Assembly: GCA_963751345.1 (NCBI GenBank)
Contig: CAVVUS010000001.1
Coordinates: 15,235 to 79,234 of the forward strand
Direction of reading: 5' to 3'
Origin: an uncultured Chloroflexia bacterium
GTDB taxonomy: Bacteria > Chloroflexota > Anaerolineae > B4-G1 > SLSP01
Length of the DNA stretch: 64,000 bases
Positions 1,401 to 14,121 of this stretch are shown one piece after another (position 1 is the first letter of the stretch; each line of letters starts with the position of its first letter). The notes under the pieces were generated by a model that saw only the letters and a list, made by a program, of their open reading frames with translations, searched no databases and was not told where the DNA came from. Both the position numbers and the translations under genes were made by a program.

Positions 1401-4211
1401 CTACACCTCCGCCAGAATGCGGCGGATCGCTGCTGCGGGGTCCTGACCCAGATGGAACCGGACGACACGACGACCGGCATCGGCGAGTGCCTGATAGTCA
1501 CCCAGGGCCTGAGCACGCACGAGGACGCCAAAACTCATCGAAGCCTCGGAGTCCCCCGCCCGGTCGGGAATCTCCGCGTCCCGGACGGGATCAGCCGTGA
1601 ACTGGATGAAGAGGCCGTTGCCGCCATCACCTTTATGGAGCTGGCCGGTGGAGTGAAGGTAACGAGGGCCATAGCCCGACGTCGTCGCAACCTGATAGCG
1701 GTCGCGAATCCAGCGGCGCAGGGACTGCAGCGCCTCCGTCGTGGCCTCGGTAGGTTGAACGTAAGCCTGCAAGGCCACGTAGTCGCCCGCGCGGACCTGA
1801 GCCAGGAAGCTCACAAGTGCCTGGCCCCCGACCTCGGTCGACGCGCCTTCGGGGAGCGCACCACTCTCGCGATAGGTTGCGATCATCTGACGTGCCAACA
1901 CTTTGGCCGCCTCTACGTTAGGTTGATTGAAGGGCTGGATGCCCAGGCTATGTCCCGCCACCGCCACAGCCATCTCCCAGAGAAAGATCTGCTCGCCAAT
2001 GTCATACAGGTCACGCAGGTGAAGCGTGACCACAGGGTGCCCGGTTTCAGCCAGTGCGCCCAACGCCGCGTCGGCAGTGGTATCGCCGTCGAGTCGGAGG
2101 TGCACAAAAAGCCGGTCGTTACCGTAGACCTCCGGCGCCCCCAATGGCTCCCCAACCACAGGGAGGATGCCCGTGCCGGCTTTGCCGGTGCTCTCGGCAA
2201 CGAGTTGCTCCACCCAATCGCCGAAATTGCCGCACGGAGGAGAGACGACCAGCGTCAGTTTGTCCCGTCCGGCCTTGGCCAGTTCGCCCAGGATGACGCC
2301 CAGTTCCGCAGCAACCGTGTCGCCGGCGGTCTGCGAAGCCTCCCCTTCCCATCCCCCGCCCGTCGAGGAAGGGGCTGGGTCTTGGCCATCATCCCTTATA
2401 TCCATAGGGGTAAAGGGGAAGCCCAGGGCGCGCTCGAGCAGAAGCCCGACGTCGACACCCAGCAGCGCTGCAGGGACGAGGCCGAAGTGGGATAGCGCTG
2501 AGTACCGCCCGCCAATGGTAGGGATGTTCTCGAAGACGGCACGGAATCCAAGCTCCCTGCCCAGTGCTGCCAGCGATGTGCCGGGATCGGTGATGGCGGC
2601 AAAGTGCGCTCCCGCGTCCGCGCGGCCCACCGCATCGCTCGTCGCGTTGTAGAAATACTTGAGGAATGACAGGGTCTCGGCCGTCGTGCCCGACTTGCTG
2701 GAGGCGATGAACAAGGTCCTCGCAAGGTCGAGCGCGTCGGCATAGGCCAGCACGGCACCGGGATCGGTGCTGTCGAGGACGTCCAGTCGCGGATAGCCCT
2801 CGCGACCGCCGAAGACGGTGCTGAAGACGTCGGGGGCCAGGCTGGAGCCCCCCATACCCAGCAACACCACGCGCGTGTAGCCGGCATCCCTGACAGCGTC
2901 GACGAAGTCCGCTATGGGTTCCAGGTGTCTCAGCATCACCGCGGGTGAGGTGAGCCATCCAAGGCGATTGGAAATCTCCGTCGGCTCCGGCTGCCACACG
3001 AAGTAGTCAAGTTCCCAGATACGGTCGACGATCTCTTCCTCGACCAACCGATCGAGGGCAGTATCTACCGCTGCCTGTTCCTCGCCAAGGCGGGCCTCGA
3101 AACGCGGCAGCCCGAGCCTGCGGCACTTCGTGCGCACGCTTTGCAGAAGTACTTCGAAGGGCTTCGCGAACTTGTCAACGCCCTCGTCCAGGAGCGCGTC
3201 GGTCACGCGATCCAAATCGATGCCCAGATCAGCCAGGCGTCTGAGTTGGGCCTGTGCGGTCTCCAGATCGGCCTCAAGGGTGTCAGCCACCGTGCCATGA
3301 TCGAGCACGGCCTTCAGCGTCTCGGGGGGCAGCGTGTTGACGGTATGGGGGCCGATCAGGGCGTCGGGATAGAGCGTGTCGGGATACGCCGGGTTCTTGG
3401 TGCTGGTGCTGGCCCACAGGGGACGCTGAAGGCTGGCCCCCTTGGCGGCAAGATGCTCCCAGCGCTCACCACTGAACGCCTGCTTGAAGCGCTGATAGGC
3501 CATCTTGGCGTTGGCGATGCCGATCGTGCCCTTGAGTTCGGCGGCCTCCGGTGTCCCAAATCATCCAACATGCCGTCGACCATCACGTCGACGCGGCTGA
3601 CAAAGAAGGATGCCACGGATGCTATGCCCGTCAGATCCCCATCCTGTCGCGGCTCGACGCTCCAGACCCGCCATATAGGCCTCCGCGACCGCGTCGTACT
3701 GCTCCAGTGAGAACATCAGCGTCACGTTGACGTTGATTCCCTCGCCGATGAGCGTCTCGATGGCAGGAATGCCCTCCGGTGTCGCGGGCACCTTGATCAG
3801 AACGTTGGGTCGACCGACAGCTCCCCAAAGATGCCGAGCTTGCGCGATCGTGCCGGCGGTGTCATAGGCCAAATCGGGGCTCACCTCGAGGCTGACGAAA
3901 CCGTCCTTACCCTCCGTAGCCTCGTACACGATCCGCAGCGTATCGGCTGCCATTTGGATGTCGCGCAGGGCTAGCGCCTCATACGTATCGGCCGCAACCA
4001 CGCCCAGATCACACGTCTCGGCGAGCTGCTGATCGTAGTCGTCGCTGCCGGCGATCGCCTTCTCGAAGATTGCGGGGTTCGACGTAACACCCCGCACGCC
4101 CTGGTTAACCGCGGCAGCCAGGCCACCGCCGAGAATGTATGAGCGCCGGATGTAGTCGAGCCAAATCGACTGGCCGGAATCCGCCAACTGGCCAAGTATT
4201 GTACTTTCCAC
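1401..4211 (-). CDS. tal-pgi: bifunctional transaldolase / glucose-6-phosphate isomerase (frameshifted near 3540-3640)
   Basis: Transaldolase motifs [38 protein letters not shown]; PGI motifs [52 protein letters not shown]. Merges ORFs 3561-4211 and 1401-3503. Confidence 0.93.
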
Positions 4212-9492: not shown

Positions 9493-10650
9493 ATGGAAGC
9501 GATAGACTTACGCGAAGACCTAGACGGCTTCGATGATACAACTGAAGCATACGATGAGGAAATCGAGGAGGAGGAGGAAGAGCAAGAGAATGACCTCCTT
9601 TCTTTGGATGAGATCTTTGGAGTAGACTCCGATGAGGAGGGACTCGAAGGAGATGCACTGGACGACTTTCACCTCTTTTTCCAGGATGAGGAAGCCGAAG
9701 AGGAAGATCTCGATGAAGACGAACCCATCGTGGACATCAGTAACATCGCAGCCAATGACTCACTGAGTCTCTATCTCCAGGAAATGGGGCGGGTGCCGTT
9801 ATTGTCCCGTGATGAGGAGATTGAGTTAGCCATATATATGGAGCAAGGTCGAGAGGCCCAGCAGAAGCTGGCCACTGACCGACACGATCCTGCAAATATC
9901 GATGAGTTGGAGGATGAGATTCGGCTCGGGCAGGAAGCCCGACGGCACTTGATCGAGGCCAACACGCGCCTGGTTGTCAGCGTCGCCAAGAGGTATCGTG
10001 GCTACGGTCTGCAGTTCCTGGATCTGATCCAGGCCGGCAACGTGGGGCTCATTAAAGCCGTGGACAAGTTCGACTATCATCGCGGCAACCGTTTCAGCAC
10101 CTATGCGACGTGGTGGATCCGCCAGGCTGTGACGCGGTCGCTGACCCAGCACGGACGCGGTATCCGTATCCCCATCCACATGAGCGATTACCTGCGAAAG
10201 CTCGACAAGATCTCGCAGAACATGGAGCAGAAGCTGGGTAGGCGTCCGACGACCGAGGAACTGGCCGAGGAAGTCAACGAGGACCCTATCAAGCTCCGCA
10301 AGATGCTGCGCCAGTCACAGACGCCGGTCTCGCTGAACAAGGAAGTGGGCGATGAGGACACGTCAGAACTGGAGCAGTTTATCGAGGACGAGTCGACCCC
10401 CACACCGGATGAATCGGCCGAGGAACGGATGTTGCACGAGCAACTGGAGCAGTTGCTGACGACGCTAGAGCCGCGCGAGGCGTGGATCCTGCGGATGCGG
10501 TTCGGCCTGCACGGAAGTAGGACACACACCCTGAAGGAACTCGGGCAGAAGCTGGGAATTTCGAAGGAACGTGTTCGCCAGATTCAGGGACAGGCATTGA
10601 GGAAACTTCGACACCCCTACCATCGACGGCAGCTTCAGGACTTCCGCTAG
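9493..10650 (+). CDS. RpoD-like sigma-70 factor (group 1/2 paralogue)
   Basis: Acidic N-terminus, DSLSLYLQEMGRVPLL, ANTRLVVSVAKRY, DLIQAGNVGL, FSTYATWWIRQAV, KERVRQIQ..ALRKLR. Confidence 0.93.
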   Translation: MEAIDLREDLDGFDDTTEAYDEEIEEEEEEQENDLLSLDEIFGVDSDEEGLEGDALDDFHLFFQDEEAEEEDLDEDEPIVDISNIAANDSLSLYLQEMGRVPLLSRDEEIELAIYMEQGREAQQKLATDRHDPANIDELEDEIRLGQEARRHLIEANTRLVVSVAKRYRGYGLQFLDLIQAGNVGLIKAVDKFDYHRGNRFSTYATWWIRQAVTRSLTQHGRGIRIPIHMSDYLRKLDKISQNMEQKLGRRPTTEELAEEVNEDPIKLRKMLRQSQTPVSLNKEVGDEDTSELEQFIEDESTPTPDESAEERMLHEQLEQLLTTLEPREAWILRMRFGLHGSRTHTLKELGQKLGISKERVRQIQGQALRKLRHPYHRRQLQDFR

Positions 10651-10706
10651 ACTTACCCATGCCGGGCAGGTTCGCGGGCGAAGAGCAGTGTGTGATCACA
10701 GAGCGA

Positions 10707-10729
10707 GGGCACTCAACGTCTGAGTGCCC
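10707..10729. terminator. hairpin between convergent sigma and encapsulin genes
   Basis: gggcactca-acgtc-tgagtgccc, 9-bp stem. Confidence 0.5.
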
Positions 10730-10765
10730 CCGTTCATCACGTAATGTGGCTGTGGGCAGCCGGAG

Positions 10766-11519
10766 CTACCCCTCCAACTTGCAGATCGCGCCCGCGCGCT
10801 TGACCCGCAGTGCGACCGTCTCCAGGACGCGGAAGCAGTGGTCAAGTCCGTCGTTGCCTGTCATAGGCTGTCACGAGATCCTGCCCCACCACGAGGTCGA
10901 AATTATAGGGTGCCAGTGAGAGGACCATGCCCTGTCCATCGCCCAACAGTTGAGAGCGATAGATGCCGCCCTCGGCAACATCCTTGATAAGGTCTCCGAC
11001 CAGCCGCCCCATCCCCTGTGAGACACGCTGGGTACTCACGTAGAGATCGGGGCTCAGGATGACCGCATAGGGACCATAGAAATCATCAGAGAAGAGTGCC
11101 TCGGTCGCCGCCACGACGCTCGCCAGGGGCCCTTCCGCCTCCCCCCAGTTTCCAAGGGACACGCTCTTGTCGGCTATATCCCACAGACCGCCAAGAACCA
11201 TCTTGTCCTCAGCCTTGGCGCAGGCCATCGCTGCCTGTGCAGCGGGGCCGAGCTCCAGCGGCAGACCCAACCTGCGGCTCGCCTCGATGTCGCGCCACTT
11301 GAGTACGAATTCCTCACTGATTACTTCGATCGAGATCTGATCTCGATTCTCTCCGGACCCGACAGGAATGACCTCCATCCCCGCCCCGAATGGGCCGACA
11401 AGGTCGAGCAGCCGCCGCCCGACCAAGAACTGGCGTGCGGCACTCACAACGACCTGGTCGATCGCCTCCCACTCCGAATCCGACAATGGAACAGCACTCC
11501 GCATGAGATAGTCAGCCAT
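10766..11519 (-). CDS. family 1 encapsulin shell protein (Linocin M18 type), one-base frameshift near 10860
   Basis: MADYLMR..PLSDSEWEAID, GRRLLDLVGPFGAG, F.LKWRDIE, AAMACAKAED, GPYAVILSP.LY, DLVVGQDLVTAY. After the frameshift it continues GNDGLDHCFRVLETVALRVKRAGAICKLEG* (stop 10766-10768); about 250 aa when repaired. Confidence 0.93.
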
Positions 11520-11535
11520 TGGTATCCTCCTGATT

Positions 11536-12456
11536 CTACTTCAAACTACCTACGGTTAGTTCATCCTTGGATGACGCGGCCTCGGGTTCCGCCTCTTCAG
11601 CCGTCTCCATCAATTCCTTCAGCACCGTGGTCAGCAGCCCGTCCCGCGTGACGATGTTGTCGATCTCTACCTTGAGAGATTCGTGCTTCGCGATCTCCGG
11701 GTCCTGGCTGAAGGCAATCAAGCGCTCCTGTGCCTCCTCGGTCAAGGCGAGGTCCGAGGTCAGCGCTGACATGGGCGAACTGCTGAGATCCACACCCGGG
11801 TAGTCAAAGGGGAGCTCCTCGCCCGCATCGGCGACCTCCTCGGCGAAATGCGACATATTCTTCATATGCCGCATAGCCGTCAGCTCGAGCTCACTGCCTA
11901 CAGGACAGACCGGCTCACCCAGCACAAACGCCTGGCGCAGGTGCTGAAGCACGAGTTTGTAGTGAGCATCTACCTCCGTGTGGAACCGGACGATCATGTC
12001 GGGTGAGAAACTGGGCTCATCGAAGAGCAACGGCTCCTCGCCTTGGGGCCCCAGCTTCTCCAACCACATCTCGAACCTGCGCTGATGGGTGACGGACTCC
12101 CAACCGAGCTGGTTGAGCACACGCTTGAGCTCACGCTCCTCAACCTGATCCGCCTGCTCGGCGTACATCTTCACCAGACCCGCCTCCCACTCGATGTAGG
12201 ATCGCAGAAGAGAGGCATTTGAGGCCCCGTCATAGGGATAGATGCCCTTCTCCATAAGCGGCTCTTCGCCCTGTTCCCCGATCTCGTCCCCAAGCCAATC
12301 CATGTGCCACATCTCTTCGCGGGCCGTAGAGAGCAGCATCTCACCGAACGGCGTGGTCTCGCCCACCTGATAGGCGTGAATCAGGTAGCGAAGAATCGAG
12401 GCGTGCTCATCCGCCAGATCCTTGTTAAGCATCTCGATAAACGCTTGTCGATCCAT
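11536..12456 (-). CDS. tandem ferritin-like (bacterioferritin-like) encapsulin cargo protein
   Basis: Domain 1 has E17, Y24, E48-M49-x-H51, E91, Y98, H124. Domain 2 is a degenerate repeat. An acidic linker leads to C-terminal DELTVGSLK; 16 bp upstream of the shell gene. Confidence 0.88.
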   Translation of the reverse strand: MDRQAFIEMLNKDLADEHASILRYLIHAYQVGETTPFGEMLLSTAREEMWHMDWLGDEIGEQGEEPLMEKGIYPYDGASNASLLRSYIEWEAGLVKMYAEQADQVEERELKRVLNQLGWESVTHQRRFEMWLEKLGPQGEEPLLFDEPSFSPDMIVRFHTEVDAHYKLVLQHLRQAFVLGEPVCPVGSELELTAMRHMKNMSHFAEEVADAGEELPFDYPGVDLSSSPMSALTSDLALTEEAQERLIAFSQDPEIAKHESLKVEIDNIVTRDGLLTTVLKELMETAEEAEPEAASSKDELTVGSLK

Positions 12457-12684
12457 ACAATACCCTCCTCAGATTACGTTAGAGCGACCAAGTATGTGTT
12501 TCCGCCACGGAATCCGCAGCTATTATATACCCAGCAACCGCCCCGCAAAGCAAGCGCGTCGGGCTGTACATATGGCGGGCCGGATGTACCATTGGGTCCT
12601 GAGAACTATGCACACCCGCGTCTTTCCCTTCGACGCCGGCCGTGCTGCTCACGACCAACTGCCCGCAGAAAGGATTCGCCAACA

Positions 12685-14121
12685 ATGATGGAGCAACTCT
12701 ACCGAGAGCGCCTGACCCGCTATCTGACCGCGATGCGCAACGAAAAACCGGATATGGTCCCCATCCGGCCGTTCGTCGCCGAGTTCACCGCCAAGTACGC
12801 CGGCTTTACGTGTCAGGATGTCACCCACGACTACAACAAAGCGTTTATCGCCGCACGCAAGTGCGCCGCCGACTTCGACTGGGATGCGGTCGTCTCGAAT
12901 ATGGTCTACGTGTGGACCGGGCTGACGCAGGCCATCGGTCTGACCTACTATGGCGTCCCCGGCCTTGACGTCCCGCCCGACACCGGATTCCAGTACAGGG
13001 AGCCGAGTGAAGAGAATGCCTTCATGAAGGCGGACGAGTATGATGAGTTGATCGACGACCCTACCGCCTTCCTCTACAACACGTGGCTCCCGCGGGTCTC
13101 GCAGGACATCCGCCCGATGGGCGCCCCGACATCGTATCGCAACAACCTGGCCCTCGTGAAAGGTGCTACGGCGATGGCGAATTACTTCGCCGCGTACGGC
13201 CCGCACGTCGACCTGCTGCGGACCGAGAGCGGCACCGTCTCCGCCATCGCGGGCATCTTCAAGGCGCCCTTTGACATCCTGGCCGACAAGCTCCGCGGCT
13301 ACATCGGGCTGACGATGGACATGGTCGAGCAGCCGGACAAGGTCCTCAAGGCCTGCGAGGCGTTGATGCCCCACCTCTACAACACGGCCTTGACGTCGTC
13401 CGATCCCAACCACCAGGTGCCCATCGGGTACTGGATGCACCGCGGCGGCATCCCGTTCGTCTCGAGAGGACAGTTCGAGTCACACTATTGGCCTACGGTG
13501 AGGCCCATCATCGAGGAGCTGTGGCGAAACGGGCACCAAACGCTCTTCTACGCTGAGGGAGACTGGGGTCACCACCTCAACAGCTTCACCGAACTTCCCG
13601 ACCACAGCATTGTCTATCACGTGGACCGGGGCGATATCTTCAAGACGCAGGAAGTACTGGGGCACAAGTTCTGCCTGAGCGGCGGCATTCCCAACTTTGA
13701 GCTCGCCTACGGCACGCCCAAGCAGGTGCGCGACATTGTCAAGAAGGTCATCGACGGCGTAGCACAGGATGGCGGCTACATCATGGATGCCAGCGCGATC
13801 ATGCAGAACGACACGTCCATCGAGAACCTCAAGGCGATGACGGATGCCACGCGGGAGTACGGCGTCTACTCCGGGGTCGCCTCCCGGCTTGCCGATCTCG
13901 ACGAGCAGGTCGCGCCACCACAGGACGCCGTCTTCGGCGAGAGCTATGGCATGCCCGATACCTCGGACCTCAAGGTCCCCGCCGGACAGTGCATCCCGTG
14001 GGCTGAGAAGCGCAAGGAGATCCCCGAGATCTCCGGGGACGTGGACCTCGCCCAGCGCATCTGGGAGGAGGTCGATGCCCCGGCCAACAGCTTTATCTGG
14101 CAGGTCCTGCTCTCGTTCTGA
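12685..14121 (+). CDS. uroporphyrinogen decarboxylase-fold protein (MtaA/CmuA-like family)
   Basis: PDMVP, MKADEYDELIDDP, PFDILADKLRG, FYAEG.W, CLSGG, DGGYIM, ENLKAM; probable start ATG 12685. Confidence 0.8.
   Translation: MMEQLYRERLTRYLTAMRNEKPDMVPIRPFVAEFTAKYAGFTCQDVTHDYNKAFIAARKCAADFDWDAVVSNMVYVWTGLTQAIGLTYYGVPGLDVPPDTGFQYREPSEENAFMKADEYDELIDDPTAFLYNTWLPRVSQDIRPMGAPTSYRNNLALVKGATAMANYFAAYGPHVDLLRTESGTVSAIAGIFKAPFDILADKLRGYIGLTMDMVEQPDKVLKACEALMPHLYNTALTSSDPNHQVPIGYWMHRGGIPFVSRGQFESHYWPTVRPIIEELWRNGHQTLFYAEGDWGHHLNSFTELPDHSIVYHVDRGDIFKTQEVLGHKFCLSGGIPNFELAYGTPKQVRDIVKKVIDGVAQDGGYIMDASAIMQNDTSIENLKAMTDATREYGVYSGVASRLADLDEQVAPPQDAVFGESYGMPDTSDLKVPAGQCIPWAEKRKEIPEISGDVDLAQRIWEEVDAPANSFIWQVLLSF

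Follow-up and report, generated by a model that had tools for sequence, protein, structure and literature searches.

Several described systems come close to the locus analysed here. The T=3 shell EncA of M. xanthus (PDB entries 4pt2, 7s20 and 8vjo) is 287 aa long and takes up iron-related ferritin-like cargos, the small EncB/C/D proteins, via a C-terminal peptide. The IMEF encapsulin of Q. thermotolerans (6nj8, T=4) forms an iron-storage compartment, and its E-loops are reported to interlock with two neighbouring P-domains and the G-loop to give a non-covalent chainmail (PMC6668986). The PfV shell of P. furiosus (2e0z) is an archaeal Flp-fusion protein with its cargo fused N-terminally and is reported as T=3 (PMC8346489). 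Finally, Bfr-like (Flp+Flp) operons, with a cargo of about 300 aa that has two four-helix bundles, a long linker and a targeting peptide, have been reported from a few Firmicutes, Aquificae, Chloroflexi and Cyanobacteria (Andreas and Giessen 2021; PMC8346489) and discussed as a possible "cage in a cage" (PMC11202242); the available text of these papers does not mention accompanying shells whose E-loop is shortened or whose G-loop is missing.

The E-loop is regarded as universally conserved in encapsulin Families 1-3 and as the element that forms the two-fold pores of Family 1 shells (PMC11664910). Its length and angle are described as tracking the T number (PMC11830004; PMC6668986). Extended E-loops are reported to make a two-fold dimer in T=1 shells and compact ones to touch mostly neighbours in the same capsomer (PMC8229669), and in the T=1 shell of M. 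tuberculosis the E-loop sheet is given as the dominant assembly contact (PMC11830004). Among phage proteins, the Che8 capsid (8e16) shares the HK97 fold and, according to the available text of the preprint, assembles without a G-loop and has a continuous spine helix (bioRxiv 10.1101/2022.09.09.507160); it differs from the encapsulins in being a phage capsid with an N-arm, and it keeps a full-length E-loop.

The window, a stretch of 64,000 nucleotides from an uncultured Chloroflexota bacterium, carries on its minus strand a gene for a Family 1 encapsulin shell protein (10766..11519), the only encapsulin gene in its genome. Our reading, to which we give a probability of about 0.62, is that the bacterium, a Chloroflexota of the class Anaerolineae, has a working Family 1 encapsulin system of two genes, in which a Bfr-like cargo is paired with a shell from a stub-loop lineage and the frameshift in the shell gene is an assembly error. 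As assembled, the open reading frame (10842-11519, minus strand) starts with the ATG at 11519, ends with a stop at 10842 and encodes 225 aa, the last six of which are out of frame. The remaining 31 residues (TGNDGL...KLEG) lie in another frame, and this one-base-shifted frame is open from ...TGNDGLDHCFRVLETVALRVKRAGAICKLEG to the stop at 10766-10768. Skipping one extra base therefore gives 219 + 31 = 250 aa, which bears out the length of about 250 aa that an earlier note on this DNA had proposed for the repaired protein; the strings quoted there are also found in the translation of 10842-11519 (...GAGMEVIPVGSGENRDQISIEVISEEF... and ...AEDKMVLGGLWD...).

The 225-aa frame matched the Pfam family Linocin_M18 (PF04454) with E=1.9e-44 and 152 bits, against a cut-off of 24.3. 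For the NCBIfam match and the fold we used P0001, an intact 250-aa protein that is 99% identical to the window protein; it scored 194 bits against NF041155 (encap_f1, the Family 1 shell equivalog), for which the cut-off is 100. Residues 3-223 of the shell protein cover positions 2-240 of the Pfam profile and residues 5-248 cover positions 1-261 of the NCBIfam model, the protein being shorter than the family model in both cases.

Comparison with the solved shells located the shortening in two places. Counted on the alignment rows from the GPxG anchor to the F of F.L.W, the E-loop region has 46 residues in EncA, 45 in the Q. thermotolerans shell and 25 in the window protein, where it extends from the GPFG anchor to F71 as residues 46-70 (11310..11384, minus strand). 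Counted in the same way from ED to the next conserved L, the G-loop region has 14 residues in EncA and in the Q. thermotolerans shell and six in the window protein; the absent G-loop would have stood after ED..(L/F)xG, between about G110 and G111 (11187-11192, minus strand). A phmmer search against PDB sequences gave 9i8e, 4pt2 and 6nj8-type entries as the best matches, and the match to each was split in two. Query residue 63 was paired with EncA residue 84 and query residue 58 with 9i8e residue 78, which leaves 20-21 residues missing, and a gap of eight residues follows ...AEDKMVLG against both EncA and 9i8e. The T. maritima shell (3dkt) is 16 residues longer over the shared core (3-222 vs 2-237, phmmer). 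The long E-loop and the G-loop of the EncA and Q. thermotolerans type are thus absent, with 21 and 8 residues missing. The earlier note had put the E-loop loss at roughly two dozen residues relative to EncA; the loss stands, but its size comes down to 21. Its second observation, that a short loop is missing after the ED motif, holds, and the eight residues are lost at the G-loop position. That both losses are in frame and are no read errors is confirmed by the same two lengths in 96 of the 120 homologues listed.

We then examined how these losses appear in a predicted structure. The AlphaFold2 model of P0001 computed with an alignment of 109 homologues (A1) has a pLDDT of 91.9 and a pTM of 0.88 and shows a normal encapsulin fold; a model from the single sequence reached a pLDDT of 34.8 and was discarded. 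The fold is of the HK97 type, with an A-domain, a P-domain and an N-helix instead of an N-arm; the model shows helices at the N-terminus, a spine helix and sheets at the C-terminus. In the model the E-loop is a short hairpin, the predicted stub of residues 50-63 (11331-11372, minus strand), in which strands 50-53 and 60-63 (4+4) are joined by a turn of five or six residues with pLDDT values of 83-95 over the block, and the P-domain strand 65-73 comes after it. Residues 91-115 (11175..11249, minus strand) form a single unbroken helix, as would be expected from the absence of the G-loop, a capsid protein that lacks this loop being reported to have a continuous spine helix (bioRxiv 10.1101/2022.09.09.507160). 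The E-loop was earlier described as almost deleted. That description is not upheld, because the model keeps a confident two-stranded hairpin (50-53 and 60-63) and the turn region includes residues that do not vary in the clade; on the model, the E-loop is shortened to a stub and not deleted.

Apart from these two loops the protein follows EncA closely, as had been claimed. The two closest solved sequence relatives are EncA (E=4.8e-40, 38-40% identity) and the D. quercicolus shell 9i8e, which scores slightly better (1.3e-42), and the model superposes on EncA with Z 30.4 and an rmsd of 1.3 Å over 242 residues. Foldseek placed the shells of M. xanthus (EncA), B. methanolicus, D. quercicolus and Q. 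thermotolerans at the top with TM scores of 0.89-0.92, and VIA-align gave Z 25-30 against these four, with 239-248 of the 250 residues aligned. Solved Family 1 shells as a whole scored Z 24-30, T=1 shells Z 23-26 and phage capsids Z 16-17, Che8 among them at 16.4. The Q. thermotolerans shell (Z 25.0) falls in the same EncA-like subgroup, but it has long E-loops with a 45-residue region, whereas in the window protein the E-loop is reduced and the G-loop absent. EncA differs in the same respects (46/14 residues in the two regions and 287 aa, against 25/6 and 250 aa), and also in its cargo, the small EncB/C/D proteins corresponding here to a Bfr-like double bundle of which the first bundle alone was matched.

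The only solved shell with an equally compact HK97 domain is that of P. furiosus. Model residues 14-249 align with chain residues 110-345 of 2e0z (227 aligned, rmsd 1.9 Å, Z 24.5), and this shell also has no G-loop insert. However, identity is only about 20%, the P-V-G-x-G-x-x-R motif described below is lacking in PfV, and its E-loop region of about 31 residues is six residues longer than that of its relative P0236 and about 6 longer than that of the window protein. The N-terminal ferritin-like fusion of PfV is absent from the window protein, which starts at the encapsulin N-helix and has its cargo in a separate gene. P0236 itself has regions of exactly 25 and 6 residues, as in the window protein, and P0001 aligns with it through both loop regions with a single one-residue gap. 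P0236 and P0261 are both Flp-fusion proteins of 357 aa; the former matches 2e0z at E=4.6e-59, and the latter is read from its sequence as of the P. furiosus-particle type. The E-loop of the window protein is therefore not uniquely minimal, since the solved T=3 shell of P. furiosus, with its approximately 31 residues, also does without a G-loop and seven of 124 family representatives, all from other lineages, have regions of 24-28 residues.

These 124 representatives come from a 50%-identity library, in which 1590 sequences matched the profile at E ≤ 0.001 and the best 150 were aligned to it. The library samples other lineages only and gives no clade count, as it holds no full-length 250-aa member, the short clade having been merged under longer representatives; among the best 150 of 1590 there was no full-length representative below 258 aa that spans the whole profile. 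In the 124 of the best 150 with both E-loop anchors, the length of the region lies between 24 and 58 residues and peaks at 46, 37-38 and 31; in most family representatives it is 31-58. Eleven of the 124 have 28 residues or fewer, four of them being fragments of the short clade and seven belonging to separate lineages. Five of these seven combine the short E-loop region with a 14-residue G-loop region (P0201 and P0226 with 24 residues, P0233 with 25, P0143 with 27 and P0263 with 28), and two have no G-loop (P0236 with 25 and P0261 with 28). G-loop anchors were present in 135 of the best 150, of which 21 have 6-7 residues in this region and 91 have 14. Because seven other lineages have regions of 24-28 residues, E-loop shortening of this kind appears to have arisen several times.

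Within the closer homologues the short form is a trait of a large clade. Of 169 homologues with E ≤ 1e-10, 120 were listed, and 95 of these have the combination of 25 and 6 residues in the E-loop and G-loop regions; one further, truncated sequence has 24 and 6. They are 54-100% identical to the query, most are 248-252 aa long and, where a source is named, they come from Anaerolineae metagenome bins. The remaining 24 of the 120 have E-loop regions of 32-55 residues and G-loop regions of 6 or 14. Both deletions are thus shared by at least 96 90%-identity clusters and are not unique to this contig. The stub carries the motif P-V-G-x-G-x-x-R, with P52, G54, G56 and R59 present in 93 of 93 short proteins and E49 in 90 of 93. 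Since the first four residues are invariant and the last nearly so, the stub is under constraint and not decaying.

A FastTree phylogeny was built from 146 sequences of at least 240 aa (219 columns, both loop regions masked; fragments, L010 and L014 excluded). All 96 short sequences (93 proteins and the loci L002, L003 and L005) fell together with nothing else inside, at a weak support of 0.45, and the node that joins them to their sisters P0106 and P0116 had a support of 0.97. In the two sisters the G-loop is missing and the E-loop region, which is rich in Cys, has 55 residues; the forms with 34 + 6 and 33-50 + 14 residues branch outside the short clade and its sisters. This branching order suggests that the G-loop was lost first and the tip of the E-loop later, once. 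The shell lineage would accordingly have arisen from EncA-like ancestors with longer loops; the loss of the G-loop would have left an uninterrupted spine helix, and the distal 9-30 E-loop residues would then have been lost, so that about 14 residues remained as a hairpin stub whose P-V-G-x-G-x-x-R turn is fixed.

Cys-rich E-loops are found beyond the two sister proteins. Inserts of 15-30 residues occur in P0096-P0120 (e.g. P0096, P0106 and P0116) and in L004, L011, L012 and L013, with four to eight or more Cys in C-x-C and C-x-x-C spacing and acidic surroundings, and some of them co-match PF09950. From their sequences they look like a surface metal- or cluster-binding module; we found no description of Cys-rich encapsulin E-loops in the literature.

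Few genomes have the short form. When 301 species-representative genomes from the same class were searched with the profile, 75 proved to have an encapsulin, and by sequence or match length about four of these 75 have the short form (G000, G051, G094 and probably G017, the last judged by match length, its gene being split over two contigs). Among the 30 loci listed, it was present only at L003 (G051), at L005 (G094) and in the window's own genome, and at the other loci the E-loop region spans 33-57 residues. In the family to which the window's genome belongs, three genomes (G062, G199 and G293) have encapsulin matches of about 800 bases, lengths that suggest long-loop forms. Vertical descent does not seem to be clean, because the short form is patchy and the matches in the window's own family fit long forms; the pattern is a hint that encapsulin operons have been transferred or differentially lost in the course of the evolution of this class. 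The genomes with L003 and L005 belong to a different family from that of the window's genome.

The gene directly upstream of the shell gene encodes the cargo. It lies on the same strand (11536..12456, minus), and its stop codon is 16 bases before the encapsulin ATG, with an AGGAGG ribosome-binding site at 11526..11531 (minus strand), 6 bases before that ATG. The product is a 306-aa Bfr-like protein of the ferritin family; its linker is acidic, and its C-terminus carries the targeting peptide ...ELTVGSLK (11539-11562, minus strand). Ferritin (PF00210) matched cargo residues 7-133 with E=1.2e-5, and the best PDB relative was 9viw, a 306-aa "Bacterioferritin" (E=9.6e-17); both matched stretches correspond to the first cargo domain, and the second ferritin-like bundle gave no match in the Pfam and PDB searches. 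Length, acidic linker and targeting peptide fit the Bfr-like (Flp+Flp) type.

The same type of cargo stands directly upstream in almost all of the 31 class loci with upstream DNA, whatever the E-loop length (L014 has no upstream DNA), and the cargo C-terminus in the relatives' loci carries a (F/W/L)TVGSL-like motif. The exceptions are L004, where the adjacent frame encodes a 110-aa protein with a targeting peptide, L025 and L026, where the cargo frame is short or cut at its 5' end, and L012, L016, L018 and L024, where the C-terminal peptides are more divergent. The operon is thus of a known type and is likely to have a role in iron storage or oxidative stress. The TVGSLK peptide at the C-terminus of the cargo would dock on the inner face of the shell, and we therefore propose that iron oxidation and storage occur within a protein compartment.

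The neighbourhood offers some observations of its own. At L003 and L005 the operon lies among genes for desulfoferrodoxin, glutaredoxin and a ferredoxin-thioredoxin-reductase beta chain fused to a rubredoxin-like domain, and the flank also has a glutaredoxin-PDZ protein; these neighbours, which occupy L005:8-400, 2270-2518, 2515-3054 and 3122-3667 and recur in L003, point to an oxidative-stress island in the two short-clade genomes; the window lacks these neighbours. Here an RpoD-type sigma-70 gene with regions 1.2, 2, 3 and 4 (9493-10650, plus strand) converges on the encapsulin gene, an arrangement conserved in L002, and its product has an unusually acidic N-terminal stretch of about 85 residues that is rich in D and E. 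Between the two convergent genes there is a GC-rich inverted repeat (10708-10731) with 9-base arms and a 5-base loop. It has no T-run and was not detected by the terminator scan, and it may be a bidirectional terminator. A terminator and promoter scan of 10600-12800 gave nothing relevant to the operon above shuffle expectation.

We infer that the shell would close as an icosahedron from pentamers and hexamers, as the EncA and P. furiosus shells do, and by analogy with PfV and EncA a T=3 size is the likeliest. The E-loop contacts with neighbouring P-domains and G-loops that make up the chainmail, and any E-loop dimer sheet, would be lost; the capsomers would be joined by P-domain contacts, and the surface near the two-fold and three-fold axes would look unlike that of the solved shells. 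Capsomers held by P-domains are to be expected because the four-residue arms of the hairpin reach less far than arms three to four times longer and because the G-loop partner is gone. The altered geometry, porosity or stability that the earlier note predicted from the loop loss is plausible.

A more far-reaching proposal, which we consider unlikely, is that capsomers joined without E-loop and G-loop contacts give shells of unusual size or tiling or with wide two-fold openings, and that the P-V-G-x-G-x-x-R stub lines a new pore or an anion or cofactor site controlling iron traffic to the cargo, with the relatives forming a natural E-loop series. The truncation might also change the architecture outright, to a T=1 60-mer, to a non-canonical or irregular tiling, or to a shell with large two-fold openings. 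The reported link between E-loop length, E-loop angle and T number (PMC11830004; PMC6668986) and the E-loop origin of the Family 1 two-fold pores (PMC11664910) speak for such a change, as do a Family 2B shell which, without an ordered N-arm at the two-fold axis, is described as having an opening of 15 x 50 Å (PMC11664910), and the T=1, T=3, T=4 and tetrahedral shells that altered EncA forms according to PDB entry titles. However, the closest compact solved shell, that of P. furiosus, lacks the G-loop, has about 31 residues in the E-loop region and is reported to be a T=3 particle of the ordinary kind (PMC8346489), T=1 shells are described as needing long extended E-loop dimers (PMC11830004), which the window protein could not make, and the same cargo accompanies long-loop and short-loop relatives. 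We therefore consider a changed architecture unlikely.

Far less probable is that the protein forms no closed shells at all and stays soluble as a pentamer or small oligomer, doing no more than bind the ferritin-like cargo. It is true that the E-loop and the G-loop, the capsomer linkers in the solved shells, are reduced or gone, and that heavily truncated HK97-fold proteins are described as Family 4 encapsulins (PMC11664910). But the P-domain, the A-domain, the N-helix and the C-terminus are all kept and conserved, 242-248 of the 250 residues superpose on shell-forming relatives, the stub is strictly constrained, and Che8 capsids are reported to assemble even without a G-loop (bioRxiv 10.1101/2022.09.09.507160).

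The last alternatives concern the frameshift, a single extra base at 10860..10862 (minus strand) that breaks the frame between ...VTAY and TGNDGL.... In P0001 the string ...VTAY-TGNDGL... is uninterrupted. L002, a locus from another Chloroflexota genome with 90% identity, has an intact 250-aa gene with a one-base gap at the extra base of the window. We also compared contigs of four public metagenome runs, of which X1 covered the site and X2-X4 did not; both crossing contigs of X1 omit one base, at 10860 or 10862, at a low depth of about 3 each; over 174 and 145 bases they differ from the window in 12 and 3 further places. Because P0001, L002 and both X1 contigs lack the base, the frameshift is most likely a consensus error of the assembly. 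Were it real, as a very recent inactivation, the gene would be a pseudogene in the window organism and the shell would no longer be made: the assembled frame breaks 31 codons before its end and then runs into a stop, and the lost tail contains the C-terminal strands 226-239 and 245-249 of the AlphaFold2 model. We regard this as very improbable, given that the defect is a single extra base with no other beside it, that the frame of the tail is open and conserved to the normal stop, that the base is absent from P0001 (99%), from L002 (90%) and from both crossing X1 contigs, and that the upstream cargo gene is intact. Programmed frameshifting was rejected, as intact relatives simply do without the extra base.

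The L002 record has frame errors too. Divergent from the cargo gene, a URO-D-like gene occupies a single long frame in the window (12304-14121, plus strand), and its counterpart in L002 (L002:2403-4098) is split into two overlapping frames, which fits indel-prone assemblies on both sides.

In the proposed reading of a working encapsulin system with a stub-loop shell, neither the gene family nor the operon type is new, and some HK97-fold proteins are likewise known to lack a G-loop. Our literature search, which covered the available text of papers, found no description of encapsulins with a stub E-loop, the sole encapsulin item being a general remark in the available text of PMC8346489. It found no paper on encapsulins in Anaerolineae or on the Dendrosporobacter quercicolus encapsulin, and for Bfr-like encapsulin cargo it returned PMC8346489 only. 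The new point is therefore a structural one, a large lineage predicted to combine a stub E-loop with the absence of the G-loop.

This lineage shows how far the HK97 fold of encapsulins can be pared down, and a naturally minimal shell is a candidate small scaffold for shell engineering. In close relatives with the same cargo the E-loop region measures 34, 50 or 55-57 residues and is in some cases Cys-rich, so that related shells form a natural gradation in E-loop length with the stub-loop shell at one extreme. Because the sister lineages, at about 50% identity and with the same cargo, have E-loops of 34-57 residues, they provide a ready-made comparison for what sets the triangulation number.
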